From: Candidatus Woesearchaeota archaeon
Lineage (GTDB): Archaea; Nanobdellota; Nanobdellia; Woesearchaeales; GW2011-AR9
Length of the DNA stretch: 64,000 nucleotides
NCBI GenBank assembly: GCA_018655525.1
Contig: JABIJM010000008.1
Coordinates: 20,836-84,835, forward strand
Reading direction: 5' to 3'
Positions 5,435-64,000 of the stretch are shown piece after piece; the stretch's first letter is position 1, and the number at the start of each line of letters is the position of its first letter. The notes under the pieces were generated by a model. That model was given only the letters and a program-made list of their open reading frames with translations. It did not search any database and was not told where the DNA came from. The position numbers and the translations under genes are program-made.

Positions 5435-6121
5435 ATGAATCTCACAATCCTTGGAACATCTCATATTGCAAAACAAAGTGTTAATGAGATTAAGAATTTC
5501 ATTGAAACTCATAAACCGGATGTTGTCGCAGTAGAATTAGACCTTCAGCGAGCAGCTGCATTAATGCAAGAACAAAAGAATAAAGTTTCAATTGCAGATA
5601 TTCTTCAGATAGGATTGAAGGGATATATTTTTGTGAAGATAGGACAAATTGTGCAAGAAAAACTTGGAAAAATGGTAGGTGTTGCACCGGGTTCTGATAT
5701 GAAAACTGCAATGAATCTTGCACGAAAAGAAAAATTAGATCTTGCATTTATTGATCAACCAATTAGAATTACATTAAAGAATTTTTCAAAGAAATTAACA
5801 TGGAGAGAACGATTTAGATTCCTTGGAGAGATGATTAAAGGATTATTGTTTCCAAAAAAACAGATGAGGGATATGGGGTTAAACAATTTTGATTTATCTA
5901 AAGTTCCAGCAGAAGAAGTGATTGAGAAACTTGTCGGACAAATGAAAAAAAAGTATCCTTCTGTGTATAAAACATTAATTTCTGATCGGAATAAGTACAT
6001 GGTTCGTGCATTGGTAAAATTGATGAGGAAACATCCTGATAAGAAAATTCTTGCTGTTGTAGGAGCTGGTCATAAGAAAGGTATGGAAGCCTTGTTGTTG
6101 AAAGTGGATGTTGTAAATTAA
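5435..6121 (+). CDS. TraB/GumN family protein
   Basis: N-terminal LTILGTSHIA...PDVVAVELD and C-terminal AVVGAGH, characteristic of the TraB family. Confidence 0.7.
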   Translation: MNLTILGTSHIAKQSVNEIKNFIETHKPDVVAVELDLQRAAALMQEQKNKVSIADILQIGLKGYIFVKIGQIVQEKLGKMVGVAPGSDMKTAMNLARKEKLDLAFIDQPIRITLKNFSKKLTWRERFRFLGEMIKGLLFPKKQMRDMGLNNFDLSKVPAEEVIEKLVGQMKKKYPSVYKTLISDRNKYMVRALVKLMRKHPDKKILAVVGAGHKKGMEALLLKVDVVN

Positions 6122-6156
6122 GAATGTTTATGTAGATCATCTTTTTTAGTAAATTC

Positions 6157-6450
6157 ATGGAAAACGAAATTAAATGGAATGAAGATTTAGGCGCGTTAGT
6201 TAATGGCGCTGGTGAAAAGTTTGAAGGTACAAGAATTTCTGGCATTGTAGGGTTTAAAAGTAGTAATAGTTCAAGAGGTTCTGAGAAAGGCGCAGACGCC
6301 TCTGTAATGACAAATATGTTATACGGTGGACGAGAACGTGACGCAGTAGCATATGAAATTGTTTCTCATACTTCAAGAGATACTGCTTCTGGACAAGAAT
6401 TCTGTCAACCAGAATGGGAAGCACATATGAGTGCTATTTTCTATAGGTGA
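6157..6450 (+). CDS. Hypothetical protein (GC-richer than its surroundings)
   Basis: 97-aa ORF with no motif. Its composition is atypical for the window. Confidence 0.3.
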   Translation: MENEIKWNEDLGALVNGAGEKFEGTRISGIVGFKSSNSSRGSEKGADASVMTNMLYGGRERDAVAYEIVSHTSRDTASGQEFCQPEWEAHMSAIFYR

Positions 6451-6538
6451 ACTCTCAAAAGATGAGGTTTTTTGAAGGCCATAAATTTCTTAATTTCTTC
6501 ACATAAAGTTTCAAAACTGGCGCTTTGAACTTTCTTCG

Positions 6539-6553
6539 CAGAAAGTTTATAAA
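6539..6553 (+). promoter_or_regulatory. BRE/TATA promoter of the RNase P RNA
   Basis: agaaag followed by TTTATAAA, about 25 nt upstream of the predicted P1 helix. Confidence 0.45.
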
Positions 6554-6577
6554 TACACTCCTCTTTAGGCACTAAAG

Positions 6578-6908
6578 GTAGTGGTAGCAGAAAGCGTAGG
6601 GTTTTGAACCCAGGAAAGTCCGCCCATTGAGTATCATGGTTACCTTTGAAAGAAGGGTGGGGAAATCCCACAGCTCTGGATTAGAAACGACACGTCCTAT
6701 AAAATTGGAATGATTGGAAGTCCTAATGGCGAAATTATTTGAGAAAATAATGAGTTAACTCCTTGACGTCTTTATAGGGAACGATGAAACGGCGAATCTT
6801 AACCAATGCAAGTCAGTTTGACGCTTAGTAGAATGCTTTCATGGATCATCGCAATCTTTTAAGGTTGTTTGGGTCCAACAAAAGGTGGCTTATGCTGCCC
6901 TACCAACT
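6578..6908 (+). ncRNA. rnpB: RNase P RNA (archaeal type)
   Basis: Conserved P4 5' strand AGGAAAGUCCGCC (6612-6624) and P4 3' strand ACAAAAGGUGGCUUAU (6878-6893). The GGUGG/CCGCC pairing is compensatory. A terminal helix pairs UGGUAGCAG at 6582-6590 with CUGCC..CUACCA at 6895-6905. No long ORF on the + strand; only antisense ORFs overlap it. Confidence 0.6.
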
Positions 6909-6923
6909 TTATAATAAATAAAA

Positions 6924-7280
6924 ATGAATATATTATACCTTGATGTAGATCCCTTAAATGGGTTTGTTGGAGAACAGATGTTAGACCTAGAAGGACATAC
7001 TGCCACCATATTACAATCAAAAAAGGAACTAACGCCCGGCATAGAAAATGATTATGACGCATTAATTCTAGATGCAGAAGCATTTGGGGTTCCAGGAGAT
7101 AGATCTAAAACTACAATCAGTGAATATTTAAGTTCAATTACAAACTATCAAGGCCAAATTCATGTGGTAACAACACAGACGCAAATGTCTTTAAGAAGAG
7201 ATTTGGGTATTTTAGTAAATCGTGTGAGTGCCCATCATAAACCCTTTAAGTGGTCTAATATCACCGATAATTTGGAATAA
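6924..7280 (+). CDS. Hypothetical protein, possibly a CheY-like receiver fold
   Basis: ILYLDVD...DALILDAE spacing resembles the receiver-domain acidic pocket. Weak. Confidence 0.3.
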   Translation: MNILYLDVDPLNGFVGEQMLDLEGHTATILQSKKELTPGIENDYDALILDAEAFGVPGDRSKTTISEYLSSITNYQGQIHVVTTQTQMSLRRDLGILVNRVSAHHKPFKWSNITDNLE

Positions 7281-7321
7281 AGACAAAAATCTTATAAACT
7301 ACATCATAAAATAAGAATTCT

Positions 7322-7495
7322 ATGGCAAGAGACAATAAAATTAATATGCCTTCTGGACAAGGAGGATTAACACGATACTTTGATGAATATAGTTCAAAGA
7401 TTGAAATTTCTCCTACAGCAGTTATTGTATTAGCGGGTGTGATTATGTTTATGCTTATTATTCTACATCAAGTAGGTGGAGGCTTTTTCGGATGA
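7322..7495 (+). CDS. secG: Preprotein translocase subunit Sec61-beta (SecG, archaeal)
   Basis: Unlisted 57-aa ORF MARDNKINMPSGQGGLTRYFDEYSSKIEISPTAVIVLAGVIMFMLIILHQ. The PSG.GL.RYFDE motif plus a single C-terminal TM is diagnostic. A TATA-like ttataaa lies about 25 nt upstream, so the transcript is probably leaderless. The stop overlaps the NAC start (ATGATG). Confidence 0.75.
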   Translation: MARDNKINMPSGQGGLTRYFDEYSSKIEISPTAVIVLAGVIMFMLIILHQVGGGFFG

Positions 7496-7833
7496 TGCCT
7501 GGTATGAACCCTCGGAAGATGCAAGCAATGATGAAGCAGATGGGGATCCAACAAGTTGAGATTCCTGCAACTGAAGTTATTATTAGAACAGCCGATAAAG
7601 AAATCATTATTACAAATCCTTCTGTCCAAAAAGTAAATATGATGGGCAACCAAAATTTCCAAGTTTCTGGAAACATTACTGAACGATTATTAGATTCTAC
7701 ACCTGACATTTCTGAAGAAGATGTAAAAACTGTAATGGAACAATCAAACGTTTCTGAAGATGAAGCACGGAAAGCGATTGAAGATGCTAAAGGAGATTTA
7801 GCAGAAGCAATCATGGGCTTAATGAAAGAGTAA
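7492..7833 (+). CDS. nac: Nascent polypeptide-associated complex protein (NAC alpha)
   Basis: NAC domain (QVEIPATEVIIRTADKEIIITNPSVQ) followed by a C-terminal UBA domain (SEDEARKAIEDAKGDLAEAIMGL). Confidence 0.8.
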   Translation: MMPGMNPRKMQAMMKQMGIQQVEIPATEVIIRTADKEIIITNPSVQKVNMMGNQNFQVSGNITERLLDSTPDISEEDVKTVMEQSNVSEDEARKAIEDAKGDLAEAIMGLMKE

Positions 7834-7871
7834 CCACAACAATTTTAAACTTCATTACATTTCTACCTCTT

Positions 7872-8330
7872 ATGCACGATGCAAAAAAAAGAGCGCAACA
7901 ACATTTTGATGCTGCTCATCATTTTCTTCATAATACATATCCTTTATTGAAAGATCCAAAGTTGCTACTAGGAATCTTTTCTAACATTTCAAAATCGTTA
8001 GAAGCGTCTATGGAAGCCATCCTATTACATGGAAGGGCTAATCATTACATTCCAGCATTTGGTGATAATTTCACACATAAATGGCACGCATTCAGCAAAT
8101 ATGCTGTCCCAAAACATCACATTGCAGGAGAATTCACAACAATGGTTATGGATTTAAACAGAATAAGAGATTTACATGATAAAAGTCCAGTAGAATTTCC
8201 ACGTGGAGAGAAATTGGTAATATGTAATGAAGAGTATGACATTACAACTTTAAGTGCTAAAGAGGCACATTTGTCTTTAAATAAAGCACGAGAATTACTT
8301 GAAAAAACTGAAGAGATTCTGAAATCATAG
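7872..8330 (+). CDS. Hypothetical protein (possible HEPN-like helical domain)
   Basis: His-rich helical protein with an R-x4-H motif (RIRDLH). No other signature. Confidence 0.35.
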   Translation: MHDAKKRAQQHFDAAHHFLHNTYPLLKDPKLLLGIFSNISKSLEASMEAILLHGRANHYIPAFGDNFTHKWHAFSKYAVPKHHIAGEFTTMVMDLNRIRDLHDKSPVEFPRGEKLVICNEEYDITTLSAKEAHLSLNKARELLEKTEEILKS

Positions 8331-8388
8331 AAAGTAATAAATAGAAGTATCAGTTCTCCCTACTTCTTGGTTACAAAGAGATACACAC

Positions 8389-8868
8389 ATGGATGAAATG
8401 AATGAAATTTTACTTGAAGCACGTGACGAATTGAAGAGGTTAGAGCACATCATCTATGTTTCTTTGAAATACACAAGAACTGTAGATGTTATTACAAATG
8501 CACTTAATCGTATGGTAAGTACCTATGATTTGGTCGTTGATGCATTTTTAGAAAGAGCTCAAGAAGAAGGTCAGATTGAATCTTTACCTAAAAGTCCTGC
8601 ATTACGTGCAAGAAGATTAGCTGAAATTCGGGAAAATGACCAAGAATTATTGAAATATCTTAAATTTTATACATTTCTCAAAAATATTTTAACGTTACCA
8701 TATAGTAGAAGACAAGAATATAGAAGACATGTTACACGAATTGTACCTTTAGAGAATTCTACTGCTGAACTTTGTATTGATAATCTTACAAATGCAGAAA
8801 AATATCTTCATAAGTTTGTAACATATGCCTGGCATACACTTGTTGGAAAGCCAGAAGAAGACGATTAG
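8389..8868 (+). CDS. Hypothetical protein
   Basis: 159 aa, helical, no motif. Confidence 0.4.
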   Translation: MDEMNEILLEARDELKRLEHIIYVSLKYTRTVDVITNALNRMVSTYDLVVDAFLERAQEEGQIESLPKSPALRARRLAEIRENDQELLKYLKFYTFLKNILTLPYSRRQEYRRHVTRIVPLENSTAELCIDNLTNAEKYLHKFVTYAWHTLVGKPEEDD

Positions 8869-8936
8869 GTCCTTTCTTAAATACACCTTGAAAAACGATA
8901 AATATTAAATACTGGTTCTTTCTCTTTCAAGTTAAC

Positions 8937-9653
8937 ATGACAAAATTTATTGCAGTGGCATCCGGAAAAGGTGGGGTTGGGAAAACTACAAGTACGTTAA
9001 ATATTGGTCAAGCATTAATCAATATTGGAAAAAGAGTTGTACTTGTTGATGCAAACCTTGTAACACCAAATTTAGCATTGCAACTAGGTTTAGTAAATCC
9101 TGAGGGTACAATCAATAAGTTCTTACGAAAAGAAAAGAGTTTGAAAGATGTCACCTATTTACATGAAACAGGATTATCTGTCATTCCTGCATCTCCCTCT
9201 TATCATGAATTTCAAAAAACAAATTCTCAGAATTTAACAGAAGTGTTCGAACATTTAGATGACACAACTGATTTTGTGTTATTAGATTCTCCAAGCGGAT
9301 TAGGATATGAAGTCAGTCATGTAATCAAACATAGTGATGAAGTCTTGGTGATTGTTAACCCCCATCTTAGTTCAGTCATGGATGCATTAAAAACAATGCA
9401 GTTAGCAAAGGCTAATGACACAATGGTTGCAGGTATTGTAATGAACATGAGCCATAAAGGAAAGCACGAAATGTCTCCTTTAGAAGTTGAGCAAATCTTA
9501 GGATTACCGATTATCGCAAATATAAGACATTCTAAAAAAATGCGTAAGGCATTACATAAGCAGATGCCTGCAACGTATTTATATCCACGTTCAAAAGTAG
9601 GAAAAGAGTTTAGAAAGATTGCTGAACATTTGACTTTACATAAGAATGTTTAG
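8937..9653 (+). CDS. minD: MinD/ParA-family P-loop ATPase
   Basis: Deviant Walker A SGKGGVGKTT near the N-terminus. 238 aa, typical of archaeal MinD homologues. Confidence 0.75.
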   Translation: MTKFIAVASGKGGVGKTTSTLNIGQALINIGKRVVLVDANLVTPNLALQLGLVNPEGTINKFLRKEKSLKDVTYLHETGLSVIPASPSYHEFQKTNSQNLTEVFEHLDDTTDFVLLDSPSGLGYEVSHVIKHSDEVLVIVNPHLSSVMDALKTMQLAKANDTMVAGIVMNMSHKGKHEMSPLEVEQILGLPIIANIRHSKKMRKALHKQMPATYLYPRSKVGKEFRKIAEHLTLHKNV

Positions 9654-9721
9654 GTACATTTCAAACAAATTCTAAATGGGAAAAGTTTTAATAGTTTTCA
9701 ATAATAGTATGAACTATCAAC

Positions 9722-10213
9722 ATGGAAAAAAAGAAGCGATTAGAACTTAAAGAGAAGGGATGGACTGAACAAGAATTAAAGAAAGCTGAAAGAATCATGG
9801 AACATGATGTCCAGCAAAGTAAGTCGTTTTCTAGATTAGTATTTTGGTCTGCATTGATTGTCATTCTTTTTGCAAATCTTGCAGTTTCTTTAGTATTAAT
9901 TCCTTTTTTGATTGTGTTTAGTGCAGTAGTGCTATATTCAGTAATTGTATTGTTAGGAATTTCATTTGGGTTTCTTTATAATTTTCTTATATCTACTGTT
10001 GGAACAATGCATAAAGGACATCACCGTTGGACAAATATTTTAGTTCCTATCGTTGCAATGATTAATATTATCATTGTAGTTTTAGCTTCTAATTTCTTTA
10101 TTAGTAAATTAGAATCAAACCCTGTTACTCAAAATCCTTTTATGGCAGGCATTGTGTTTGCAATTGCATTCGTATTACCTTATATGATATTAAAATTATT
10201 TTTTAAGAAATAA
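9722..10213 (+). CDS. Membrane protein of unknown function
   Basis: Charged N-terminus followed by 4 predicted TM helices. Confidence 0.45.
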   Translation: MEKKKRLELKEKGWTEQELKKAERIMEHDVQQSKSFSRLVFWSALIVILFANLAVSLVLIPFLIVFSAVVLYSVIVLLGISFGFLYNFLISTVGTMHKGHHRWTNILVPIVAMINIIIVVLASNFFISKLESNPVTQNPFMAGIVFAIAFVLPYMILKLFFKK

Positions 10214-11800
10214 TTATTCGTCTTTGTTTCCAACTAGTTCTTCAATAACAACCGCAAATGCTGGTCTTGCAATCAATACTCCAAATGTAATACCTGCAAT
10301 CGTTGTAAGTGCAAATCCTTTCAATAAACCTGCACCCGCCCAGTATAAAGGAAGCATTCCTGAAACTGTTGTTAAGTATGCACCCATGACAATAAACATT
10401 GCATTCTTAAGACGTTTTTTCCAATTTGTTTCTTCTTGACCACGCAGGGATTCATCTGTGATTACAATGAGATGATCTACACCTGTACCCATTACAATGA
10501 TAATACCTGCGATTGCTGCAAGATCTAAATTCCATCCTACAAAGGCTGCAAATCCTAAAATTAAAATAACTTCTGAGAATAAGGTTAAAATCATTGGAAG
10601 CACAACTTTAAGTTTTCTATAACGAATGAACACAACCGTAGTTACTGATAATGCAACAAGTAATGCTACTAAAAATACATTATCAAGAAATTCTTTTCCT
10701 AAAGAAGCGGAGATTGAATCCATTTTTACCAGTTCTAATTTCACTGGAAGACTTCCTGTCAAAAGAATTGTCTGAAGACGCTTCATATTTTGTTGTGCTA
10801 CTTTAACTGCTTCTTGTTCTGTAGGTCCAACACCGGAACCAGAGATTTGAATTTGAGTGGTTTTACTTCCTTTTAGGTCCACACCTATGTTAAGAGAATC
10901 TACTTCTACATCATCTAACATTAATACTAAAGGTTCACTTAAGTAACCGTCTGGTCCGCCAACAATATCTAAATTCTGCGTTGCTGCTGCTTGTTGAGCT
11001 GCTGCATCTGGGCTAAGAGTAATTGCAAAGAAAAACCTACAACTATATCCTTCACCTGATCTAAAACATGCACCGCCTTGTCCCCCAATACCGGAACAAT
11101 CTGCACTTCTACAAACATAAGTAATATCTTTCTTTCCACCACGAAATACGGTTTGATTAGCAATATTTGCTTCAAATTTTCCTTGCTTTGATAATAATTC
11201 TTTAACTTCTTCTTCTGTCACACCAGCAATTTCTACTAAAATAAAATCTGTACCTTGCAAATCCTTTGCTGGACGTACAATAACATCACTTAACCCATAT
11301 ACATTGAGACGTTCTTGTAAACTTGCAACAGTTGTGTCAAGATCTTCTTGTGAAACTTCTTCTTGAAATTCTAAAAGAACCCGAGTTCCACCTGCAAGAT
11401 CAAGCCCTTTCTTTAAGTTTGAAGAAGGTGCATTTGAAATACGTAATTGTAATGTTGCCTTTCCATCAATAGTATCTGGAAGAAAGTTATAGGTTCCTTT
11501 TGTTGTTTCAACATGAATAATTTTAGTTGGATCTAATTTTGATTCTACTGCTGCAAAATTTTCTATTGAAGTTATTTTTTCAGAATTGATTGCAATTACT
11601 TTTTCTCTTGCTAAAGGAGGAAGTGTAGATGCAGGATTTTGTAACCCTTGCTGTGCAATACTTGCATTTTGTCCAACACTATTAATGATTACACCTTCAT
11701 TTCCGAAAATTTGAGGTTTAATCGCCATCACTGAAAATATAAGACAAATGAGTAACAAAATTACTTTCCAATGTGTGAAAATTTTTTTATAGGAACTCAT
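10214..11800 (-). CDS. secD: Protein-export membrane protein SecD
   Basis: N-terminal TM, large extracytoplasmic domain, C-terminal 5-TM bundle. Shares a 4-nt overlap with the upstream secF. Confidence 0.75.
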   Translation of the reverse strand: MSSYKKIFTHWKVILLLICLIFSVMAIKPQIFGNEGVIINSVGQNASIAQQGLQNPASTLPPLAREKVIAINSEKITSIENFAAVESKLDPTKIIHVETTKGTYNFLPDTIDGKATLQLRISNAPSSNLKKGLDLAGGTRVLLEFQEEVSQEDLDTTVASLQERLNVYGLSDVIVRPAKDLQGTDFILVEIAGVTEEEVKELLSKQGKFEANIANQTVFRGGKKDITYVCRSADCSGIGGQGGACFRSGEGYSCRFFFAITLSPDAAAQQAAATQNLDIVGGPDGYLSEPLVLMLDDVEVDSLNIGVDLKGSKTTQIQISGSGVGPTEQEAVKVAQQNMKRLQTILLTGSLPVKLELVKMDSISASLGKEFLDNVFLVALLVALSVTTVVFIRYRKLKVVLPMILTLFSEVILILGFAAFVGWNLDLAAIAGIIIVMGTGVDHLIVITDESLRGQEETNWKKRLKNAMFIVMGAYLTTVSGMLPLYWAGAGLLKGFALTTIAGITFGVLIARPAFAVVIEELVGNKDE

Positions 11801-12744: not shown

Positions 12745-15024
12745 TCATTTACGATTAAATACAACAACCAAACTTAAAATCGTTAACGTTAATACGAGAA
12801 AATAAGGGATTAATTTCTGGGTTTTCATTGAACTTGATTCATAAACAACCATGCCCGTAAGATGATTACGGGATTCTGGTGTTTCTTTGAATGAAGAAGA
12901 TTCTTGAGAAGTAGAGATTTTTTCTTCTTTAGTATTGGACAATGTTGGAAGAGATAAATTTGAAGTTTGAGATTTAGCTATTTCTTCCTTTTCTTTAATG
13001 TAAATTTCTTTAGTTAGGTCCTTTGTAGTCTTTCTTCCTTTTTTCAAGATTTTTACCTTTAGTTTGTATGCACCTGGGTTGACATCTTCATCTATTTTGA
13101 CCAAAAATTCTGTAATTTTTGCTTCTTCATCTCCTAAAGACACTTTTTTTGCAAGAGCATCACGTTCTTCATCATCACAGGAATAACATTTACTTCCCCT
13201 ATATACATAAGGCCATATCGTAAATGAATTTTTTTCATCTTCATTCAAAATTTGAACTTTCAATCGCAATATGTTTCCAGATTCAACTGAATTTGGGAGA
13301 TCAATGATGTCATATGTCAACTTTTGTTTCGTTGATGACGTTGTTTCTGTTTCAGAAGTTGTTGAAGATGTAGTTAAATTCTTTTTTGCTTCTTTAATGT
13401 AAGTTAACAAATCCTTACAGACGCCAGGATCAACGTCAGAAATAGTAAATTCTTTTTTAGAGGTTAAATTGAATGCGCTTAACACTAATTCTGCTTTTCC
13501 TGAATCTATATTTTCATGACAATTAGGGATTAGTTGAATGGGAAGTGTTAAAGGATAGTTCTTATATTTATCCATAATATTTACACGTGTTGTTTTACTC
13601 AATTTCTTACCGTCACGTTCCACCCATAATTGAACTGAGGTTTTGGTTTCGTCTCCTTTATAAATTTCAACTTTTGTTGTAAATTGTTCTCCCCATTTTA
13701 CGCGGTTATCTGAACCAACATTAATTTTGGTGATTTTAAGAGAAGAATCTGATTTATCATACAAAGGATTAATTGCAAACATTTTTGAAACATTATTATT
13801 TTGAAGGTTTTGATCATCACAGGTTAAGTTTTCAAACCAAAATTGTAATTGATAAATCCCTTCTTTTAATCTTGGTGAATACGTTTTTTTTGCACTTGTT
13901 GAGATTTTACGTTTTTTGAATGGGGTGTATGTTTTGATTTTTTTTCCGAAGAAATCTGTAACGGTTCCTGTTGCAGTGATGTTTTGTATTAATCCGGAAT
14001 CTCTTGTTGCATAAATTTGGAATGAAAAATCTTTATTTGTGAAAATTGATTTTTTAAGATTTAAATGTAATTTCCAATCACATTTGTTGTTCAATTTAAT
14101 ATTTGGATTTTTTGGAGAAGCATTTGTAAGAAAAAACCCCTCATCAAATTGACTGAAACTCATTCCTTCAACAGCACCTGCATAATTAATTGTACTTAAA
14201 AGTGTATCTCCTCTAAATAATCTTACTTCATCAAAATCTGAGTTTAAAGAAAAATCCGTGTCACCATCCCGATAGACTAATTTGTAACAATGGCTACAAA
14301 TTAAAGTATTTCCATCAACTTTATTATCGGCAATGATTAATTGATTGGAATCATCTTTATCTTTAAGAATTAAACCTTTGAGATCAATTGTTTTAAGAGC
14401 ATTATTGTAAATTTCAACCCATTCGCCATCTGGTTTATGGAGATTATCTTCTCCAAAGGGATTAGGTAAAACTTCAGAGATTTGAAGAAAAGTATATTCG
14501 GCAGAAAGGTCCCATACGCTATTTATTTCTCCGGGAGTTCCATTCAGGACCAAACTTTCTCCAAAACTTTCATCTGACCTTTTTTCTAGTGTTTTTCCTT
14601 TTTTCCATTTTGTGACATCATAAGAAATTGAATCATTGTAAGTATGATTGTAAAGTGTAATGGTTTCTTTATTTCCTAAACTATTTCCGAGAGTTTTATC
14701 ATCTATACATATCTTAAGCGCAGTTGTATTTATGTGATTATAAAGTTGAGAATCTTGATCTGTAATAATCGCATAGGACTTCGGTTGTAATATAAGCGAA
14801 CAATTGTTTATGAACCCACAACAAGTTATTTGATCAATGCTTTTTGTATCGCTGAAATTCCATTCAGTGAGGTTGACGGGACGTTCAGAGGGGTTATAAA
14901 TTTCAACCCACTCACAATATTTATCGGAACATTGTGATGAAGAAAACATAACTTCACTAATTTCAATTGATGCAACCGAGAGGGGTATAAATAATAAAAA
15001 AATTACAATCATCCATCTCTTCAT
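12745..15024 (-). CDS. Large secreted/surface protein with two lamin-tail domains (LTD) and a C-terminal TM anchor
   Basis: Signal peptide present. Two LTD signatures (CEWVEIYNPSERPVNLTEWNF and GEWVEIYNNALKTIDLKGLIL). Thr/Ser-rich linker. C-terminal hydrophobic anchor followed by basic residues. Confidence 0.6.
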   Translation of the reverse strand: MKRWMIVIFLLFIPLSVASIEISEVMFSSSQCSDKYCEWVEIYNPSERPVNLTEWNFSDTKSIDQITCCGFINNCSLILQPKSYAIITDQDSQLYNHINTTALKICIDDKTLGNSLGNKETITLYNHTYNDSISYDVTKWKKGKTLEKRSDESFGESLVLNGTPGEINSVWDLSAEYTFLQISEVLPNPFGEDNLHKPDGEWVEIYNNALKTIDLKGLILKDKDDSNQLIIADNKVDGNTLICSHCYKLVYRDGDTDFSLNSDFDEVRLFRGDTLLSTINYAGAVEGMSFSQFDEGFFLTNASPKNPNIKLNNKCDWKLHLNLKKSIFTNKDFSFQIYATRDSGLIQNITATGTVTDFFGKKIKTYTPFKKRKISTSAKKTYSPRLKEGIYQLQFWFENLTCDDQNLQNNNVSKMFAINPLYDKSDSSLKITKINVGSDNRVKWGEQFTTKVEIYKGDETKTSVQLWVERDGKKLSKTTRVNIMDKYKNYPLTLPIQLIPNCHENIDSGKAELVLSAFNLTSKKEFTISDVDPGVCKDLLTYIKEAKKNLTTSSTTSETETTSSTKQKLTYDIIDLPNSVESGNILRLKVQILNEDEKNSFTIWPYVYRGSKCYSCDDEERDALAKKVSLGDEEAKITEFLVKIDEDVNPGAYKLKVKILKKGRKTTKDLTKEIYIKEKEEIAKSQTSNLSLPTLSNTKEEKISTSQESSSFKETPESRNHLTGMVVYESSSMKTQKLIPYFLVLTLTILSLVVVFNRK

Positions 15025-15138
15025 TTTTCACATGAAATAAAAAATGTTTTAAATACATTTACGTCTTAGAACCATTGTTTTACTATTGTCAAATACTAAA
15101 CAAAGTTTAAATAGGCTCTTCTGCTTTTAAATGGAATT

Positions 15139-15615
15139 ATGGGATGGTTATTTGGCAAGAAAAAGGTACCTAAGGTTCCGTTTCCGCAAGGACGGGAAGC
15201 AAATGCATTAAAGTTTCCTTCTAGTACTCCTGCTCAAAGAATTATTGAACCACGTAGTGTTAAAGAAGCGGTTGGTGTTGGAAAAGCTCCATTACCTCCT
15301 TCAAAGCCACAACGCGAAGAAGAAACTTTAGTTCCAAGTCCTAAAGAAGTCCCAAATATGCCAACACCTATGCAACCTCACGAGATTTTTGGTGCAGAAG
15401 GCCCACTATATATTAAGATGGAAGTTTATCAAACAATTCTTGGAGAATTGGATGAATTAAAAACAGATTTCACACGTTTAAATAAATCTCACAGAATATT
15501 AGAAGAATCAGAATTCAATGAAGAACATCACTACGGAAAATTAAAAAATAACATGAAATTAATTCATGATAAATTATTACAAGCAGATAAAACCTTATTT
15601 AAGGTGCAAGAATAG
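15139..15615 (+). CDS. Hypothetical protein (Pro-rich N-terminus, helical C-terminus)
   Basis: ORF with an SD-less ATG. No motif. Confidence 0.4.
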   Translation: MGWLFGKKKVPKVPFPQGREANALKFPSSTPAQRIIEPRSVKEAVGVGKAPLPPSKPQREEETLVPSPKEVPNMPTPMQPHEIFGAEGPLYIKMEVYQTILGELDELKTDFTRLNKSHRILEESEFNEEHHYGKLKNNMKLIHDKLLQADKTLFKVQE

Positions 15616-15617
15616 AG

Positions 15618-15854
15618 GTGACTATGATGGAAAAAATGCCTGTCTTCGTAAAAGTTGACGATTATAATGATGTACTGGGATTAGTAAAAACTATTAGATC
15701 TAAGTTAGAGGATGCTAAACAAACTTTGTTAAAAATTCATGATTTGAAAAATGAAGAAGACCACCAACTAGAATTATGGCAAAATACTTTGGCTGAAGTT
15801 GAAAAAAAGGTTGATTTTGTGGATCATTCTTTAAATGAACCTCAACAATTCTAA
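15618..15854 (+). CDS. Hypothetical small protein
   Basis: 78 aa, tightly linked to its neighbours. Confidence 0.4.
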   Translation: MTMMEKMPVFVKVDDYNDVLGLVKTIRSKLEDAKQTLLKIHDLKNEEDHQLELWQNTLAEVEKKVDFVDHSLNEPQQF

Positions 15855-15859
15855 ATACT

Positions 15860-16528
15860 ATGGCAAAACGCAAGACAACACGTAAAAGAACAGTTAAAAG
15901 GAAAGCTACAAAGAAACGAAGTTCTTCAAAACGTAAAGCAACAACTACAAAAAGAACTGTAAAACGAGAATCTGGTCCTGCGTATATGGTTCAATTATCA
16001 GATCCAAAAAGTATTAGAAAAGATATTCTTGAATCTCTACGAGAAGTGATTATTTTTATGCAAGCTCATGAAAAGTTTATGCGGATCCAAGAGGAAAAAG
16101 TAACACTATTTACAAAATTAAAAAATGATGTGAAAGAATTAAATTTATTAATTGAACATAAGTTGAAAAAGCATTTGCCAAAAGGAAAATTAAAGGCAGT
16201 TTCACGATATGTGGAAAAAAGGAAAAAGCAACAAGATATGGAAAAAGTAGAAGTGGTTTCAGCAAGAGAAATGGCAAACAGTCCAAGAATGCCAGAAGTA
16301 CCGGTGAATGTTGTATCAACATTACCTAACGGTTCAATACCTCAGCCGTTACCAAATCCTTTGCCTCCAGCTGCACCTTTACCTCCTCCTCAACCAGGAC
16401 AAACGCCGGCACCTTCTCCAGTTCCAATGGCGCCACCAATGCCTAAGCCTGTTGCGCCTAAATCAGATTTAGATGATTTAGAGAATCAGTTAAAGGATAT
16501 TGAAGACCAATTACGTGGCATCCAATAG
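15860..16528 (+). CDS. Hypothetical protein with a basic N-terminus, coiled-coil and proline-rich segment
   Basis: KRK-rich N-terminus, PLPNPLPPAAPLPPPQP tract, C-terminal coiled-coil. Confidence 0.4.
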   Translation: MAKRKTTRKRTVKRKATKKRSSSKRKATTTKRTVKRESGPAYMVQLSDPKSIRKDILESLREVIIFMQAHEKFMRIQEEKVTLFTKLKNDVKELNLLIEHKLKKHLPKGKLKAVSRYVEKRKKQQDMEKVEVVSAREMANSPRMPEVPVNVVSTLPNGSIPQPLPNPLPPAAPLPPPQPGQTPAPSPVPMAPPMPKPVAPKSDLDDLENQLKDIEDQLRGIQ

Positions 16529-57177: not shown

Positions 57178-58869
57178 TTAAAATCGTAAAACTTTAACCT
57201 CCCTTGTTTTGAGATTTACTACTGGAACTCGTCCGGGTTCTGGTTCATGACCTAATTTTTCTTGGAAGGAGGTCATACTTTGCCAACAACTTCCACTAAT
57301 CATTGTAATTCCTTTATAATTAGCAACAGAAGAATAATGGATATGTCCGGTAATTAAAAAATCTGGTACTTTTTTAATCAGTAAAGGATCTTCTTTATGG
57401 CCTGGATAATAAGGAGTTGATGTAAATGATGGAGCCATATGCCTTCGTTTAAGAAGGAATTTCATTATTAAGTCAGCTCTTTTATATCCTCCTCCATTTC
57501 GTATTGATTCTACATTTGCAACATAATAATCAAAACTATATCCATGATACATTTGAACATTAAATCCTTCAAAATCCTTTGTTTTTCCAATATTAATCAA
57601 TGCAGGATTTGTCACTAATTCTACATTTGGCAGTTCAAATAATCCTGGAACAAATTGTTGATAAAGTACAGGTTGAGGTTCAGCTAAATGTACAAGATCA
57701 TGGTTGCCTGGACAGATTATAATAGGAATGTGTGAAGGAATTCCTTTGATTAATTCTACAAATTTTTGATATTGTCCTTCAATTGTGGTGATAAATAATT
57801 CTTCTTCATGTCCAGGATAAATTCCAACACCATCTACTACATCTCCTGCAATGAAAATGTATTTTAAGTTACGTGCAATGTTTCGTTGTGCTTCGTTCCC
57901 TACATTTCCATTCGTCCATTCTATAAATTTTTTAAATGGTTCTTCTAAAAAATATTTTGAACCAACATGAATATCTGATAAAAAAATAACATGTTCTTCT
58001 TCTGGTCCTTTTTTCATAACATTAGTTGAAGGAATGTCAGGCCAGACTACATTTTCTGCAAAAATAATTTTATCACCCGTTACTCCTGAAATTCCAACTA
58101 CCTCGTCATAAACAAGGTCTTTACCATCTAAAAAAAGATCTTTTTTATTTTTTGAAATAAGAACTTTAATTTTTCCAGTGAAGTCTTCTAACGTCAACAT
58201 CAAATTTCCATTCTTTGTTTCACCAATTTCTTCGACAATCCCGATGATAGAAACATTTTCTCGTTCTTTTTTTTCAAGAACTCTACTTATAGAAAGCATA
58301 TTTTTTAATTCTTGTCTATTTCTGAGTATGTTTTCTAAAAACTTAAATCGCGATGTAAAGAAATGAGTGAAATCTGCAACTGTAAATTTGTGAGGTTTAT
58401 TTTCATAAGAAATTATAATTGTAACTGCTGAAGAGGGCTGAACAATATTTTGTGGTGACAATTCTAATTCTAAATGTTCTTTTTCTTTAAGTTCTTCAGG
58501 AGTGCCTAGATTTGTTTTTTGTGTATCTTCTAATTCAACTTCTAAACTACTGACATCTTGGTTACTTTTATGTTGAGGGACATCAATTGAAAGAGTTGAT
58601 GTTTTGAAACTCTGTAATTGAGATTGGTAAATGTCGTCATTTCTATCTTTTTCAGAATTTACACGCATTTCATCTACTTCATGCCAATCAACAAGTGAAG
58701 ATTCTTGTTTGATGACATCTACATAATCATCATTAAGTACTATTAAATCAGATTCTGTTTCTAATTTTTGACGTAAATTTTTGTCAAGGCCTTTTTGAAG
58801 TAGTTCTTCATTTAGTAAGATCCCTTTTTCGAACATTTCTTCTATTAATTTTTCACGGCTCGTTGTCAT
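57178..58869 (-). CDS. polB: DNA polymerase II (PolD) small subunit DP1
   Basis: C-terminal calcineurin-like phosphoesterase motifs (GDVVDGVG, GNHD, GHIH). N-terminal OB region. Confidence 0.85.
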   Translation of the reverse strand: MTTSREKLIEEMFEKGILLNEELLQKGLDKNLRQKLETESDLIVLNDDYVDVIKQESSLVDWHEVDEMRVNSEKDRNDDIYQSQLQSFKTSTLSIDVPQHKSNQDVSSLEVELEDTQKTNLGTPEELKEKEHLELELSPQNIVQPSSAVTIIISYENKPHKFTVADFTHFFTSRFKFLENILRNRQELKNMLSISRVLEKKERENVSIIGIVEEIGETKNGNLMLTLEDFTGKIKVLISKNKKDLFLDGKDLVYDEVVGISGVTGDKIIFAENVVWPDIPSTNVMKKGPEEEHVIFLSDIHVGSKYFLEEPFKKFIEWTNGNVGNEAQRNIARNLKYIFIAGDVVDGVGIYPGHEEELFITTIEGQYQKFVELIKGIPSHIPIIICPGNHDLVHLAEPQPVLYQQFVPGLFELPNVELVTNPALINIGKTKDFEGFNVQMYHGYSFDYYVANVESIRNGGGYKRADLIMKFLLKRRHMAPSFTSTPYYPGHKEDPLLIKKVPDFLITGHIHYSSVANYKGITMISGSCWQSMTSFQEKLGHEPEPGRVPVVNLKTREVKVLRF

Positions 58870-60065
58870 AGTTGTAATTCTTTTTCTAACATTTCTTTAA
58901 GTTTGATGATAATTCCTTCTTCTAATGAAAGATTGATTTCTCGAGTTCTCCCATAGCGTCCTTTAGAAATAATTTTTGCATTGATAATTCCAAGCATATC
59001 CAATTCTGCCAAAATATCTGAAACACGGCGTTGTGTTAAGATATTAAGATTAGATTTTTTACATAATGTCCCATAAATTTCATAAATTTCTCCTGTAAAA
59101 AATTGACGTTTCTGAGGACTAATCAACATGATTGCAAATAATACTAATTTAAACTGGCGTGGCTGATTCATTGCAGCGCTAATAAGTTTGTCAGATTCTA
59201 CTTTTCTTTCTGCAGCATCTAAATGTGTAATTTCAACTTGTCGTGAACCACTTCTCTCTGCTATTTCTCCTGCAACACGTAATAAATCTATTGCTCTTCT
59301 TACATCTCCATGTTCACGGGCTGCATAAGCTGAACATTTTTCAATTACACCTGTTTGAACAGTACCATCATTAAATGCAGAATTTGAACGGTTTCGTAAA
59401 ATTTCTTGAATTTGTAGAGCATTGTAAGGTGGAAAAATGATGTCTTCTTCCGAAAGACTACTTTTCACACGTGGATCTAAATTTTCTGCGAATATTAAAT
59501 TGTTAGAAATTCCAATTAAACAAATTTGTGAGTTTTTTAATTCTGCATTAATTCTCGTTAAATTGTAAAGAACTTCATCACCAATTTTTTTTGTTAATTG
59601 ATCTATCTCATCAAGAATAAGAAGAATAACTTGTTTTTCTTGGTCTAATAATTTGTAAAAGATATTATAAATTTCATCTGTTGGTAAACCTGTGGAAGGA
59701 ACATCCCTTCCAAAACTCTTGATTAATTGTGAAATTAGTCTATATTCTGTATCTGCTACACGTTTTAATTTACAATTTACATAGATTGGTTTTAACGCAA
59801 TGTTATTTTTAACTGCAATCTCCTTCATAGAATTCACAATACTTTTCATTGAAAGAGTTTTTCCAGTACCTGTTTTTCCATAAATAAACAAATTAGAAGG
59901 TTTTTCATTTCTAAGGGCAGGTGCTAGAATGTTTGCTGCTTCACTCATTTGTTCTTCTCGATAAATAACATTCTCTGGCATATAAGAAGATAGTAAAACA
60001 TTCTTATCTCTAAAAAAAGAATCCTGTTTAAGGTAATTTTCAAAAAAGTTATTGATTCCAGACAT
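58866..60065 (-). CDS. cdc6: Orc1/Cdc6 replication initiator
   Basis: AAA+ Walker A GKTGTGKT, Walker B LILDEID, C-terminal winged helix. The start codon directly abuts an ORB element. Confidence 0.85.
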   Translation of the reverse strand: MSGINNFFENYLKQDSFFRDKNVLLSSYMPENVIYREEQMSEAANILAPALRNEKPSNLFIYGKTGTGKTLSMKSIVNSMKEIAVKNNIALKPIYVNCKLKRVADTEYRLISQLIKSFGRDVPSTGLPTDEIYNIFYKLLDQEKQVILLILDEIDQLTKKIGDEVLYNLTRINAELKNSQICLIGISNNLIFAENLDPRVKSSLSEEDIIFPPYNALQIQEILRNRSNSAFNDGTVQTGVIEKCSAYAAREHGDVRRAIDLLRVAGEIAERSGSRQVEITHLDAAERKVESDKLISAAMNQPRQFKLVLFAIMLISPQKRQFFTGEIYEIYGTLCKKSNLNILTQRRVSDILAELDMLGIINAKIISKGRYGRTREINLSLEEGIIIKLKEMLEKELQL

Positions 60066-60066
60066 A

Positions 60067-60089
60067 GTGACCCCCCTATTTCCTATGGA
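60067..60089 (-). promoter_or_regulatory. ORB element 1 (origin recognition box)
   Basis: The minus strand reads TCCATAGGAAATAGGGGGGTCAC, matching the archaeal ORB pattern of a TCCAnnGGAAA dyad plus a G-string. Confidence 0.6.
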
Positions 60090-60471
60090 AAAATGTTTTT
60101 TGGTGAAAATGATCGTGCAACAAGAGTGTGTTGTGCAATCAGATCTTTGTTCGTTGTTGTTTGATTATGTTAAATTTCAATGTTAAATGTAGTTTTGAAC
60201 CACTCTTTCCCATAACCTACATTTCTGATGGAAACAATCCTATAAATAGTTATCGTTAGTAGGATTGGATGGTAACAGAATCTAGTATTAAGTATACTGT
60301 GAAGGAACATGTAGAGTGGAATTCATATTATTAAGTTTAAATCAAAGCAAAATAAATCAATTTAAGGGAGGTAAGATCATTTGTAAGGTAATTAAACAAT
60401 TTTAAGAATAAATTATATTATAAGGAAATTAAGAAGAGTTTAGATAATGTTACTCTTATTACACATATCCT

Positions 60472-60730
60472 TTATTATTATTATTATTATTTAGATATAA
60501 ATTTATTATATATATATAAGATAAATAAAAACATTGATTGGAATAACCTTTGAAATCTTCTTTAAAACTTAGAAAATTAAAATGAACTTTTTCACTTTAA
60601 AATCAATCAAAAAAAACAAAATCTTCAAAAACTTTTGTCGTCGTTAATTTATTATTATCTATATTGAAAATATATTATATATATATATATATAGTTATAT
60701 AATAATAATAATAATAATAAGAAGAAGAGA
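60472..60730. repeat. Cluster of simple-sequence repeats inside the origin region: (TTA)n, (AT)n, (AAT)n
   Basis: ttattattattattattatt at about 60472-60491, atatatatata at about 60508-60518, (at)8 at about 60677-60692, (aat)7 at about 60700-60720. Confidence 0.6.
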
Positions 60731-60928
60731 ATGAGTTAAGTGAATAAAATAAATGATGTTTAGGTTTACTTTCTTTTGAATTTAAGTTTAATGGTTATTT
60801 CTATTTGAAGTTAAGTGGGTATCTCTCTTAACTCAAATCATTTTTGATATTTCATTTGTTTTACTCATAACGAATGTGTTAAGCGCAATTCCTTTCTCTT
60901 TGAAACATAATTCTACTTAAAATAATTC

Positions 60929-60953
60929 TCCATGAGAAACGGTGGTCTGTGAC
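60929..60953 (+). promoter_or_regulatory. Degenerate ORB-like element 3
   Basis: TCCATGAGAAACGGTGGTCTGTGAC. Confidence 0.4.
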
Positions 60954-61079
60954 CTTTTATTACATTTAATCCATATTATTTTTGATTAACATATGGATTA
61001 TAATTGTTTAGGTATGTTTTATTTTAATAGATATCTTTTTTATCTTTTTTATACTTATTTTTTTCTGAATTATTAAATC

Positions 61080-61102
61080 TCCATAGGAAATGAAGGGGTC
61101 AC
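61080..61102 (+). promoter_or_regulatory. ORB element 2
   Basis: TCCATAGGAAATGAAGGGGTCAC. An inverted copy of ORB1 with 20 of 23 nt identical. Confidence 0.6.
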
Positions 61103-61306
61103 ACTCATATGGCATGTTCATTTAACATTAATGTTCATATTACAAAATATAGTTTTGTGAATGTTTAAAAATTAAGTGTGTTAACTGCAATGCCCTTTAT
61201 TAGAGGAGAATAAGGGGGAATTACATTTATTTAATTATTTAATGTAGTTCATTTTAGGTTAAACTCAAATCCGAAGTTTTAAATACCTTTATCTTATTGG
61301 AATTGT

Positions 61307-62143
61307 ATGGTTTTAGAAGCATTATTCAATCCCTTTACTATAAAAAAGAAACCTTGGCAGATGTTTACTGCAGGATTTCTTTATTCTATAATTGCATTAG
61401 CGATGTCTTATGTTGTTTTTACAGAAATTGCAGGGATCTTAATGATTTTTCTTATTGTTATTGCAACTTTACCTATTTTGTATTCTACAATTAAAGGTGA
61501 AGAAGAATTAGATTTAGAAATTAAGAAGGAATCTGTTCTTTTAAAGGAACATACAAAAGTTCTTGTCTTTCTTATGTTCTTATTTTTAGGGATAACAACT
61601 GCGTTCGTATTATCCTATGTATTCTTACCAAGTGCAATGGTTGATTCTGTGTTTTCTTTACAACAAAATGCAATCAACTCGGTGAATGTCAATATTAATG
61701 CTGAAGTCACGGGTAATATTACTAAAATAGACCTTTTCAGTAGAATTTTTGTAAATAATCTTAAAGTATTATTTTTCTGTTTAATTTTTTCATTACTTTA
61801 TGGAACTGGTGCTATTTTTATACTAACGTGGAATGCTTCTGTGATTGCAACCGCCATAGGAAATCTTGTAAAAATTAAAGCTGCCGAGAGTATAGGTGGG
61901 ATAACTTCTTATTTTAGTGTTGCAATTTTTAGTTTTATGCGTTATATGACTCATGGGGTCTTTGAAATTGTAGCATATTTTGTTGCGGGGTTGGCAGGTG
62001 GAATCATTTCTATAGCTTTAATTAAACATAATATGGAAGAAAGAAGTGTTTTAGTTGATGCATTGGATTTAGTATTGATAAGTTTAGGATTAATTATTGT
62101 CGCTGGTGTGATTGAAGTTTATGTTACACCTTTGTTTTTTTAA
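61307..62143 (+). CDS. Polytopic membrane protein (SpoIIM/DUF95-like)
   Basis: 278 aa with 6-7 TM helices. Confidence 0.45.
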   Translation: MVLEALFNPFTIKKKPWQMFTAGFLYSIIALAMSYVVFTEIAGILMIFLIVIATLPILYSTIKGEEELDLEIKKESVLLKEHTKVLVFLMFLFLGITTAFVLSYVFLPSAMVDSVFSLQQNAINSVNVNINAEVTGNITKIDLFSRIFVNNLKVLFFCLIFSLLYGTGAIFILTWNASVIATAIGNLVKIKAAESIGGITSYFSVAIFSFMRYMTHGVFEIVAYFVAGLAGGIISIALIKHNMEERSVLVDALDLVLISLGLIIVAGVIEVYVTPLFF

Positions 62144-62862
62144 AGAACTTTAACTCTTCCAGGTTGGTTTTGAAAGATGTCCCCTGATTCCATCATTTTT
62201 TCAATTAGTTGTTCGGTATCATCTAATATGGATTGTTCAATGATTTCTTCAATTAAGACTCCTTCTCCTTGATCTAATTTTTTAATTAATTGTGTGATTT
62301 TTTCTATAGGGAGAAGTTTTTCTTGTTCTTTTGTTTCTTCAGATATTTCTTCTATAATTGGCTTTTCAATTGTTTCTACAATTTTTTCTTCAACAATTGA
62401 AGGAGATATTTCTTCTTTTTTTACATCTAATTCAACCATACCTTGTAATTCTAACATACGAACTTTTAACCATGCTGCACTTGTAGCTTTCATGATTTCT
62501 GGAGATATATATTTTTCATTATTATACATCCGTACTTTACCAATTATGACTACAAAGTCTCCCACTTTAACTTGTTTTAGATATGCTAATTCTTCAAATG
62601 AACGGGCTACCATTTGTCCGGTTTGATCTTCAATTAACATATTTGTAATTGAACCAACTTTTTCTTTTTGAATAATAATTCCAATGAGGTTTACACGGAA
62701 CACTTTCCCATGGTGGAGAGTTTGAATATGGTGAGGGAGTTCAGGATCTGTATTTACAAATGTACTATGATTAATTTCTTGGATAGTTGTTTTAATTGCA
62801 GTTTGCCGTACGTATTTATTTTTTTCATCCTTTATTTGTGGTGTAGTTTGTTCCATTATCAT
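62140..62862 (-). CDS. OB-fold nucleic-acid-binding protein with a C-terminal winged helix (RPA32-like ssDNA-binding protein candidate)
   Basis: OB-fold pattern (VNLIGIIIQKEKVG...VKVGDFVVIIGKVRMYNNEKYISPE). Acidic linker. C-terminal wH-like helix bundle. Sits between oriC and mcm. Confidence 0.45.
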   Translation of the reverse strand: MIMEQTTPQIKDEKNKYVRQTAIKTTIQEINHSTFVNTDPELPHHIQTLHHGKVFRVNLIGIIIQKEKVGSITNMLIEDQTGQMVARSFEELAYLKQVKVGDFVVIIGKVRMYNNEKYISPEIMKATSAAWLKVRMLELQGMVELDVKKEEISPSIVEEKIVETIEKPIIEEISEETKEQEKLLPIEKITQLIKKLDQGEGVLIEEIIEQSILDDTEQLIEKMMESGDIFQNQPGRVKVL

Positions 62863-64000
62863 AACCTCTGGATAAATCCTCGTTTAGGTTCAAAAATATC
62901 TCCTGTTCGTCGTAATTTTTCTAACGTTGCTTCTACTTTTTCTTTAGGAATATTTTTTTCTTGTGCAGCTTCAATGATATTTTCAACTGGAATTATTTTA
63001 GAATTTAATTGTGATTCCATTTCTGCAATGATTTCTTTGATTGTACTAATTCCACTTCGTTGAGTTGCAGTGATTCTACTACTTAATCTATCAATATCAA
63101 TTTTTCCTGTTTCAGAATCTTTCGCAATTTGATCTAAACAATAACTTACAAGTTCAATTCCTTTTTGAGCATCCTTTTTTGTGACTAATTTTGCAAATCG
63201 TAATTTTGCAGATGCTTCTGCAAGACGTACAAGAGCTTCTAATTGCCTTGCAGTGATAGGGATACTTTTTACGCCTCCTTCGTCCCCTCCTGAATTTCGC
63301 ATGGTGATATAATAATCTTTAATTTCCGCAATGGCTTCATCAGTCATTTTAGGATTCATATTTTTACGAATGTATATGAAATATTTTCTTAAAATGTCTG
63401 TATCTAATTTTGCAATTACTTTATCTGGATCTTTGTGCAAACTTAAAATGAAACTAGCGGTTGCTTCATCTTTTTCCTTACTAGGCATATCCTTTACAGG
63501 AAAAATTAAATCAAAACGTGAAATTAATGCTGGAGGAAGATTAATTTGGTTTGCAACTAAATCATAAGGGTCGAATCTTCCAAATTTAGGGTTTGCTGCT
63601 GCAATTACGGAGGTTTCACATCTCAATGTTGCTTGGATGTTTGCTTTGGAAATAGAAACTGTTTGTTGCTCTAGCGCTTCATGTAATGCAGAACGGTCTT
63701 CTTTAGTCATTTTGTCCATCTCATCAATAATTGCAAACCCTTTATTTGCAAGGACTAAAGTTCCTGCTTCTAAACTCCATCCACCTAGAAATTCATCTTT
63801 AACTACAGAGGCTGTTAATCCTGCTGCACTTGCTCCTTTACCGCTTGTAAATCTTGATTTTGGCGCGACTGCGGTGATTCTTTTTAGTAATTGGGATTTT
63901 CCAGAACCAGGATCTCCTATTAGAAGAATGTGCATGTCACCTCTTGTGATCACGCCGTCTGGACGAACTTTTCTTGAGCCTCCAGCAAGTTGTAGGACTA
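62859..64000 (-). CDS. mcm: MCM replicative helicase (C-terminal about 380 aa, N-terminus beyond the window)
   Basis: AAA+ Walker A GDPGSGKS, Walker B IDEMDKM, arginine finger SRFDLIF, C-terminal wH. The reading frame stays open to the window edge; the listed M at 63953 is a GTG within the ORF. Confidence 0.85.
   Translation of the reverse strand, partial: VLQLAGGSRKVRPDGVITRGDMHILLIGDPGSGKSQLLKRITAVAPKSRFTSGKGASAAGLTASVVKDEFLGGWSLEAGTLVLANKGFAIIDEMDKMTKEDRSALHEALEQQTVSISKANIQATLRCETSVIAAANPKFGRFDPYDLVANQINLPPALISRFDLIFPVKDMPSKEKDEATASFILSLHKDPDKVIAKLDTDILRKYFIYIRKNMNPKMTDEAIAEIKDYYITMRNSGGDEGGVKSIPITARQLEALVRLAEASAKLRFAKLVTKKDAQKGIELVSYCLDQIAKDSETGKIDIDRLSSRITATQRSGISTIKEIIAEMESQLNSKIIPVENIIEAAQEKNIPKEKVEATLEKLRRTGDIFEPKRGFIQRL

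Follow-up and report, generated by a model that had tools for sequence, protein, structure and literature searches.

A probable oriC1-type replication origin upstream of orc1 in a Woesearchaeota (DPANN) archaeon

Boxes in the spacer upstream of orc1

A 64,000-nt stretch of contig JABIJM010000008.1 from a Candidatus Woesearchaeota archaeon (hereafter the window) carries an orc1/cdc6 gene for a replication initiator, and the non-coding DNA directly upstream of this gene has the features of a chromosomal replication origin. On one side of this spacer lie orc1 and the genes for the two subunits of PolD, dp1 and dp2; on the other lie genes for a SpoIIM-like membrane protein, an RPA32-like protein and MCM (Table 1). 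The orc1 stop overlaps the dp1 start by 4 nt, dp1 and dp2 are separated by 1 nt, and dp2 comes last; because of this overlap and short gap, orc1, dp1 and dp2 are regarded as one operon. The spacer between orc1 and the SpoIIM-like gene (60066-61306) is 1241 nt long and has a GC content of 24%, compared with 31-32% in the surrounding window. It gives no Rfam match at E<=1 and its longest open reading frames (ORFs) do not exceed 46 aa, and we rejected a non-coding RNA or a small protein as its content on these grounds.

The spacer is bounded by two inverted 23-nt origin recognition boxes (ORBs), ORB1 next to orc1 and ORB2 farther away, which, as reported in the initial annotation of this DNA, are identical at 20 of 23 positions; they lie 990 nt apart. 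With up to three mismatches allowed, the full box matches the 64-kb window at these two places only and never matches in 100 dinucleotide shuffles; frequent recurrence of the 23-mer, named beforehand as a sign that would speak against an origin, is not seen in the window. The 12-nt core, TCCATNRGAAAY, is found four times in 64 kb against 0.33 expected, all four inside the spacer. Together, two full boxes with a TCCA-N3-GAAA dyad core and a G-string and two mini-ORBs make up the repeated element. The proximal mini-ORB had been overlooked. The distal one corresponds to a third degenerate copy that had been placed at 60929-60953; its 12-nt core (60929-60940) holds up, but the rest of that 25-nt span is diverged in locus L011, a relative with 91% Orc1 identity. 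The loosest form of the core, TCCANNNGAAA, has eight further matches in the window, scattered singly at about the background rate, with none in dp1 and one in dp2.

The four boxes are mirror-symmetric about position ~60582, the left pair lying on the minus and the right pair on the plus strand. The spacing of full and mini-ORB is 143 nt in one half and 151 nt in the other; the full pair is centred at 60584.5 and the mini pair at 60580.5, and the mini-ORBs are ~700 nt apart. Between the inverted boxes lies an AT-rich core, a candidate duplex-unwinding element (DUE), so that the locus reads ORB(-)/DUE/ORB(+). The GC content of the core is 11-20% in 100-nt windows and reaches an 80-nt minimum of 5% at about 60644-60723. 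The core contains microsatellites, (TTA)n/(TA)n at 60460-60531 and (TA)n/(TAA)n at 60645-60726, and these blocks are mutual inverted repeats (I1-I5) centred at ~60590.

The boxes had been assigned to the ORB type, and the assignment agrees with published binding data: their TCCA...GAAA core and G-string match the Pyrococcus furiosus ORBs that bind Cdc6 in vitro and read TTCCAGTGGAAATGAA-ACTCT-GGGGGG on the reverse strand (PMC1904270).

Table 1. Genes and sequence elements in and around the spacer (positions in the window)
Feature	Position	Strand	Remarks
PolD large subunit DP2, 1182 aa	53628-57176	-	Pfam PolC_DP2_N, PolC_DP2_central, PolC_DP2_cat (E 1e-85 to 1e-123)
PolD small subunit DP1, 563 aa	57178-58869	-	Pfam DNA_pol_E_B, Metallophos, OB-fold
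orc1/cdc6 initiator, 399 aa	58866-60065	-	Pfam Cdc6_C, Cdc6_lid, AAA; TIGR02928, 406 bits
ORB1, proximal full box	60067-60089	-	TCCATAGGAAATAGGGGGGTCAC; G-string toward orc1; fills -24..-2 of orc1
Proximal mini-ORB	60221-60232	-	TCCATCAGAAAT
AT-rich core, candidate DUE	60400-60750		Between inverted ORBs
Second motif, copy 1	60878-60889	+	GTTAAGCGCAAT; direct repeat; origin membership uncertain
Distal mini-ORB	60929-60940	+	TCCATGAGAAAC
ORB2, distal full box	61080-61102	+	TCCATAGGAAATGAAGGGGTCAC; G-string away from orc1
Second motif, copy 2	61180-61191	+	GTTAACTGCAAT; between ORB2 and SpoIIM-like gene
SpoIIM-like membrane protein, 278 aa	61307-62143	+	Pfam SpoIIM (PF01944), 4e-17; transcribed away from origin
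RPA32-like OB-fold protein, 240 aa	62140-62862	-	Pfam OB-fold (tRNA_anti-codon) above cutoff
mcm, C-terminal ~380 codons	62859-64000, off window end	-	Pfam MCM, MCM_lid, MCM_WH_arc

The initiator and conservation of the boxes in relatives

The best PDB matches of the window Orc1 are initiators bound to ORBs, S. solfataricus Orc1-1 (2QBY_A, 1.9e-100) and A. pernix ORC1 (2V1U_A, 1.4e-97); Orc1-3 and ORC2-type chains reach no better than 6e-43. The aligned S. solfataricus and A. pernix sequences are near-identical to the window protein over its winged-helix (wH) segment, TQRRVSD...GRYGRT. By sequence, the orc1 gene adjacent to the boxes thus belongs to the Orc1-1 clade of initiators, and the near-identity of its wH segment to those of ORB-bound Orc1-1 proteins suggests that the cognate Orc1 binds the boxes. 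Orc1/Cdc6 is listed among the replication proteins of the single-copy information-processing core of Nanobdellota (Nanobdellota preprint), and therefore no other Orc1-type origin is expected; the lineage probably has a single Orc1.

An Orc1 identical to that of the window is found in the metagenome-assembled genome GCA_018672075.1 and on about 20 metagenomic contigs, and relatives at 91-96% Orc1 identity are labelled Candidatus Woesearchaeota. We compared 13 loci with enough DNA upstream of orc1 (loci are given L numbers here), ten of them Woesearchaeales-like, the window included, and three distant ones at 47-48% Orc1 identity, among them Ca. Methanohalarchaeum; the set covers 47% to 100% Orc1 identity. 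In each of the 13 spacers, the ORB nearer to orc1 lies on the strand of that gene, and a distal one in the opposite orientation lies 385-1227 nt upstream of the orc1 start. The density of ORB cores in the spacers exceeds that in the other 157 kb by a factor of 16.6. A GC minimum of 4-11% lies between the ORBs in 12 of the 13 loci (10/10 Woesearchaeales-like, 2/3 distant); the exception, Ca. Methanohalarchaeum, has inverted ORBs as well, with a GC minimum of 20% that falls outside them. The gene order mcm - RPA32-like - SpoIIM-like / origin / orc1 - dp1 - dp2 is kept across the Woesearchaeales-like set.

The boxes are thus conserved at the orthologous locus, and the DNA around them is not: outside the boxes, the spacer diverges freely even in comparison with L011. 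Among eight relatives at 70-77% Orc1 identity, 11-mers of ORB2 are found in seven (none in shuffles) and those of the proximal and the distal mini-ORB in six each (0-1 in shuffles). No 11-mers of the window spacer other than those of the ORBs and mini-ORBs are common to six or seven of these eight; one further motif, GTTAAC/GCAAT, reaches five. At the level of sequence, this pattern is the footprint of selected protein-binding sites and not that of a mobile element.

Two other parts of the spacer deserve mention. A block of ~110 nt around the proximal mini-ORB (60165-60275) is almost invariant between the window and L011, while the remaining spacer is full of indels; it has a canonical TTTATA box ~25 nt upstream of the mini-ORB, matches nothing in Rfam, and may hold an additional promoter or encode a small transcript. 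The second motif, GTTAANNGCAA, recurs in the origin spacers of L011, L013, L015 (twice), L016, L029, and L030. In the form GTTAA(A/C/G)(T/C)GCAAT it has ~10 matches in ~10 kb of orc1-upstream spacers vs ~0.1 expected, a rough estimate from base composition, and its position and orientation vary among the Woesearchaeales-like relatives. It could be the site of an accessory origin factor, comparable to the ucm/UBP pair of Sulfolobus, or a promoter element.

A probable origin and rival explanations

Archaeal origins consist of an AT-rich unwinding element flanked by ORBs and located beside an initiator gene (PMC4010727, PMC5333045). On the combined evidence of box sequence and arrangement, initiator clade, and conservation, we consider it likely that the spacer 60066-61306 is an oriC1-type (Orc1-1/ORB) chromosomal replication origin of this Woesearchaeota (DPANN) archaeon. 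We infer binding, melting and firing at the spacer by analogy with the oriC of Sulfolobus, Aeropyrum, and Pyrococcus, on which we modelled the mechanism. Orc1 monomers would occupy all four boxes, each in a set polarity, with weaker binding at the two inner mini-ORBs than at the two full ORBs. As the TCCA...GAAA dyad ends point inward and the G-strings outward, the bound initiators would bracket the core of 5-20% GC. ATP-bound Orc1 would then recruit MCM, which is encoded 1.5 kb away, to the core, the core would melt, and forks would exit both ways.

The initial annotation held that this locus fixes the replication start of the genome and had named a skew inflection here as the observation to look for. 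To analyse strand asymmetry, we regressed per-gene third-position (GC3) and four-fold-site skew on gene strand. The right flank was extended by 6 kb with L001, a contig of the same population (12 mismatches in a 13.7-kb overlap, 99.9% identical); when metagenomes were scanned with a right-flank protein, no long contig of the same species turned up. The strand-corrected GC3 skew is +0.145 ± 0.026 to the left of the spacer (1-60 kb), where all four 20-kb blocks lie at 0.13-0.19, and +0.283 ± 0.043 to the right (nine genes, 9 kb). The difference amounts to a 2.7-sigma step in the direction expected of an origin, with just 9 kb on the right side. An inflection in the sense of a sign change is absent, and the statement that the replication start is fixed claimed too much. 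At four-fold sites, the G/C asymmetry is significant on both sides (Fisher p = 8e-5 left, 0.002 right), as is the A/T asymmetry (p = 3e-5 left, 7e-8 right). Irrespective of gene strand, G and T are in excess on the plus strand for 70 kb (window plus L001 extension) without reversal, both at third codon positions and at four-fold sites. Pooled relatives give inconsistent skew signs, and the pooling is confounded by orthologous gene content. In L030 (74% Orc1 identity), the region 600-11600 shows a GC3 skew of +0.73 for plus-strand and +0.46 for minus-strand genes, which falls to about 0 in dp1 and may reflect an unusual mutational asymmetry or a composite contig.

Several observations weigh against an origin at this place. 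The sign of the GC3 skew is unchanged across the locus, as judged from 60 kb on the left and only 9 kb on the right; the four-fold sites show an excess of G and T on the plus strand on both sides; and relatives disagree in the sign of the asymmetry next to the origin. The full ORBs stand ~990 nt apart, compared with 130 bp for the ORB3-DUE-ORB2 unit of Sulfolobus, and the expected TATA position of orc1, AAAAAACATTTTT, is A/T-rich and not a canonical TATA box. We do not take the skew as a refutation because the bacterial skew pattern is found in only 18/224 RefSeq archaeal genomes (PMC7111523), ORB-based origin calls in Thermococcales succeed where skew is "inoperative" (PMC4640148), and one side comprises just 9 kb.

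In a rival reading, the spacer would be a dormant or minor origin, that is, a conserved, Orc1-bound site through which forks pass while replication mostly starts elsewhere or in a recombination-dependent manner. By the bacterial rule, a G/T excess unbroken from 1 to 70 kb would make the plus strand the leading strand on both sides of the locus, and the viability of origin-less Haloferax volcanii strains demonstrates that archaea can replicate without origins (PMC5333045). We nevertheless regard a dormant site as improbable: purifying selection clearly acts on the ORBs, on the way they are oriented, and on the AT core down to 47% Orc1 identity, the single-copy core listing of Orc1/Cdc6 leaves no other Orc1-type origin to be expected, replication-type skew is missing from most archaeal genomes, and a skew whose sign is inconsistent among relatives may not report replication. 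Even less probable is that the boxes have no role in initiation and act purely as operators at which Orc1 controls transcription of the divergent orc1-dp1-dp2 and SpoIIM-like units. ORB1 does overlap the core-promoter space of orc1, and some archaeal Orc1 paralogues, such as Orc1-2, are regulators and not initiators (PMC9738581); the window protein, however, falls in the initiator Orc1-1 clade and not with Orc1-2. Moreover, ORB2 lies ~205 nt upstream of the SpoIIM-like start codon, far from the TATA box of that gene, and regulation alone leaves unexplained why inverted ORBs stand about 0.5-1.2 kb apart around a core of 4-11% GC in 12/13 genomes.

Two inverted repeats of ~23 nt about 1 kb apart around AT-rich non-coding DNA also resemble the terminal inverted repeats of a non-autonomous mobile element (miniature inverted-repeat transposable element, MITE) inserted upstream of orc1. 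Dispersed copies are the mark of such an element, yet no further copy is present in the 64 kb. In 13 genomes, the boxes are found at one syntenic place around an interior that diverges freely, the box sequence fits the pan-archaeal ORB consensus, and the interior holds extra copies in ordered orientation. We therefore rejected a MITE or another element derived from an insertion sequence, which has a negligible chance of being correct.

Promoter overlap, neighbouring genes, and known origins

ORB1 ends one base from the orc1 ATG, as the initial annotation had noted in proposing autoregulation. This ATG is the only in-frame start, and the start and the N-terminus are conserved in relatives; a proximal ORB at about -24 to -29 from the ATG is also present in L010, L011, L012, L014, L029, and L031. 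TATA-like hexamers (TTTAWA or TTAWAWA) start at -36..-27 in 29/66 window genes, with a peak at -33..-28, and Shine-Dalgarno (SD)-like motifs are found in only 13/66. Because TATA boxes are regularly placed near the ATG and SD-like motifs are few, most transcripts of this Woesearchaeote, the orc1 mRNA included, are probably leaderless. With 13/66 SD-like motifs vs 29/66 TATA boxes of the leaderless type, we set aside a reading of the G-string as the SD sequence of orc1 (GGGGGT, 5-6 nt before the ATG). Orc1 bound to ORB1 would sit between the TATA position and the transcription start and would repress its own orc1-dp1-dp2 operon. The geometry (-24..-2, leaderless-type promoters) makes such autorepression plausible, and the earlier proposal survives as a suggestion from geometry. 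The TATA position of orc1 departs from the canonical form.

Woesearchaeote-like ORBs also occur on viral contigs. Two IMG/VR contigs, both with a terminase large subunit gene, carry them: L052 has an ORB(-)/220-nt AT-rich/ORB(+) cassette at 8588-8857, and L041 has five ORB cores within 300 nt (9002-9302), one of them directly beside the start codon of a gene for 148 aa. No orc1 is present within the fetched DNA of either contig; both may stem from tailed archaeal viruses that make use of the host Orc1. Thirteen other single matches may be due to chance. Tentatively, and with less confidence than in the origin itself, the observations can be read jointly: ORB1 would be hard-wired into the leaderless orc1-dp1-dp2 core promoter, its occupancy would throttle the supply of both initiator and PolD, and tailed viruses with an orc1-less cassette would borrow the host initiator. 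If this is true, viruses use the host initiator for replication and gene control alike. In a bolder and less likely variant, forks would not leave this origin in both directions, which would account for a strand asymmetry that runs on without a break.

The gene identities given earlier for cdc6, PolD DP1 and DP2, the RPA32-like protein, and mcm are borne out by Pfam and PDB matches. The interpretation as an origin-type architecture is supported, and the arrangement of the boxes upstream of orc1 is conserved in 13 genomes; in the cdc6/origin/RPA/mcm layout that had been described, the SpoIIM-like gene, which had been omitted, intervenes. This gene has a canonical TATA box beginning near -31. 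In all Woesearchaeales-like relatives whose fetched DNA reaches that far (L012-L016, L029-L031), it is the first gene on the side away from orc1. The RPA32-like protein matches P. abyssi RPA32 (8AAS_B, 1.5e-7) and yeast Rfa2 (6I52_B, 0.003), and it scores 25.9 bits against RMI2, under the cutoff of 29.4; its gene overlaps the mcm stop by 4 nt. The complete mcm gene is present in L001-L003 and encodes 672 aa in L001. In the relative L029, mcm (12785-16174) is a single ORF of 1129 aa, as opposed to 672 aa in L001-L003, which are of the same species as the window, with an in-frame insertion of ~1.3 kb within the ATPase domain that is probably an intein. Farther away, the window encodes an archaeal RNase P RNA (6578-6903, plus strand; RF00373, 141.7 bits); because of this RNA and the core information-processing genes, we take the window to be chromosomal. 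ARAGORN finds no tRNA genes anywhere in the 64 kb.

Among characterized origins, the oriC of Pyrococcus abyssi and P. furiosus resembles the window locus in lying directly upstream of cdc6/orc1, followed by dp1 and dp2, in having two inverted long ORBs with mini-ORBs of 12-13 nt and AT-rich stretches between them (PMC4010727), and in sharing the ORB core TTCCA-N3-GGAAATGAA followed by a G-run (PMC1904270). The G-string of the window boxes, however, is about 5 nt nearer to the dyad, and the box measures 23 nt as compared with 34 nt. Thermococcales have a second ORB cluster inside dp1, whereas the window dp1 contains no core matches. The other flank also differs, with mcm and the RPA32-like gene behind the SpoIIM-like gene, as do the host, a DPANN archaeon with 32% GC, and the AT core, which is built of microsatellites.

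The closest initiator homologues, with a near-identical wH segment, are those of Sulfolobus/Saccharolobus and of A. pernix oriC1. In Sulfolobus oriC1, as in the window, inverted ORBs flank an AT-rich DUE next to orc1-1; neither of its two inverted ORBs is dispensable, and they guide MCM to the DUE between them (PMC12141716). The same source describes this origin type as the best conserved among archaea. The 22-bp ORB recognised by A. pernix ORC1 (PMC1904270) is close in length to the 23-nt window box. In contrast to the three origins and several initiators of Sulfolobus, the lineage of the window probably has a single Orc1, and the window contains another recurrent motif, GTTAAWYGCAAT; no search was made for the ucm motif.

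The criteria applied here, an Orc1/Cdc6 gene, clustered ORBs, and the ORB(-)/DUE/ORB(+) order, are those of Ori-Finder 2, Ori-Finder-Arch, and DoriC, which differ in that they provide bulk predictions. Nanobdellota are among the taxa covered by the bulk oriC predictions of a 2026 preprint, which finds ORB(-)/DUE/ORB(+) in 67% of the predicted archaeal CDC6-type oriCs; the Nanobdellota preprint rotates 208 complete genomes to orc1 without an ORB or skew analysis. For Woesearchaeota and DPANN origins, our literature search found only orc1-based genome rotation, one skew plot of a Diapherotrite, and bulk predictions, and it found no paper that describes or tests a Woesearchaeales origin, its box consensus, or its promoter overlap.

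As an ordinary archaeal origin type, the predicted origin leaves the known picture of archaeal replication initiation unchanged. It offers a concrete model for Woesearchaeales, an abundant uncultivated DPANN order whose genomes recent work only rotates to orc1, and at the level of sequence this model consists of the box consensus TCCATAGGAAAT-N3-GGGGT, the polarity of the boxes, the AT core, and the promoter overlap. It suggests that Thermoproteota, Thermococcales, and DPANN share an Orc1-1/ORB recognition code with hardly any change, and it would serve as an anchor for coverage-based estimates of growth rates in metagenomes.

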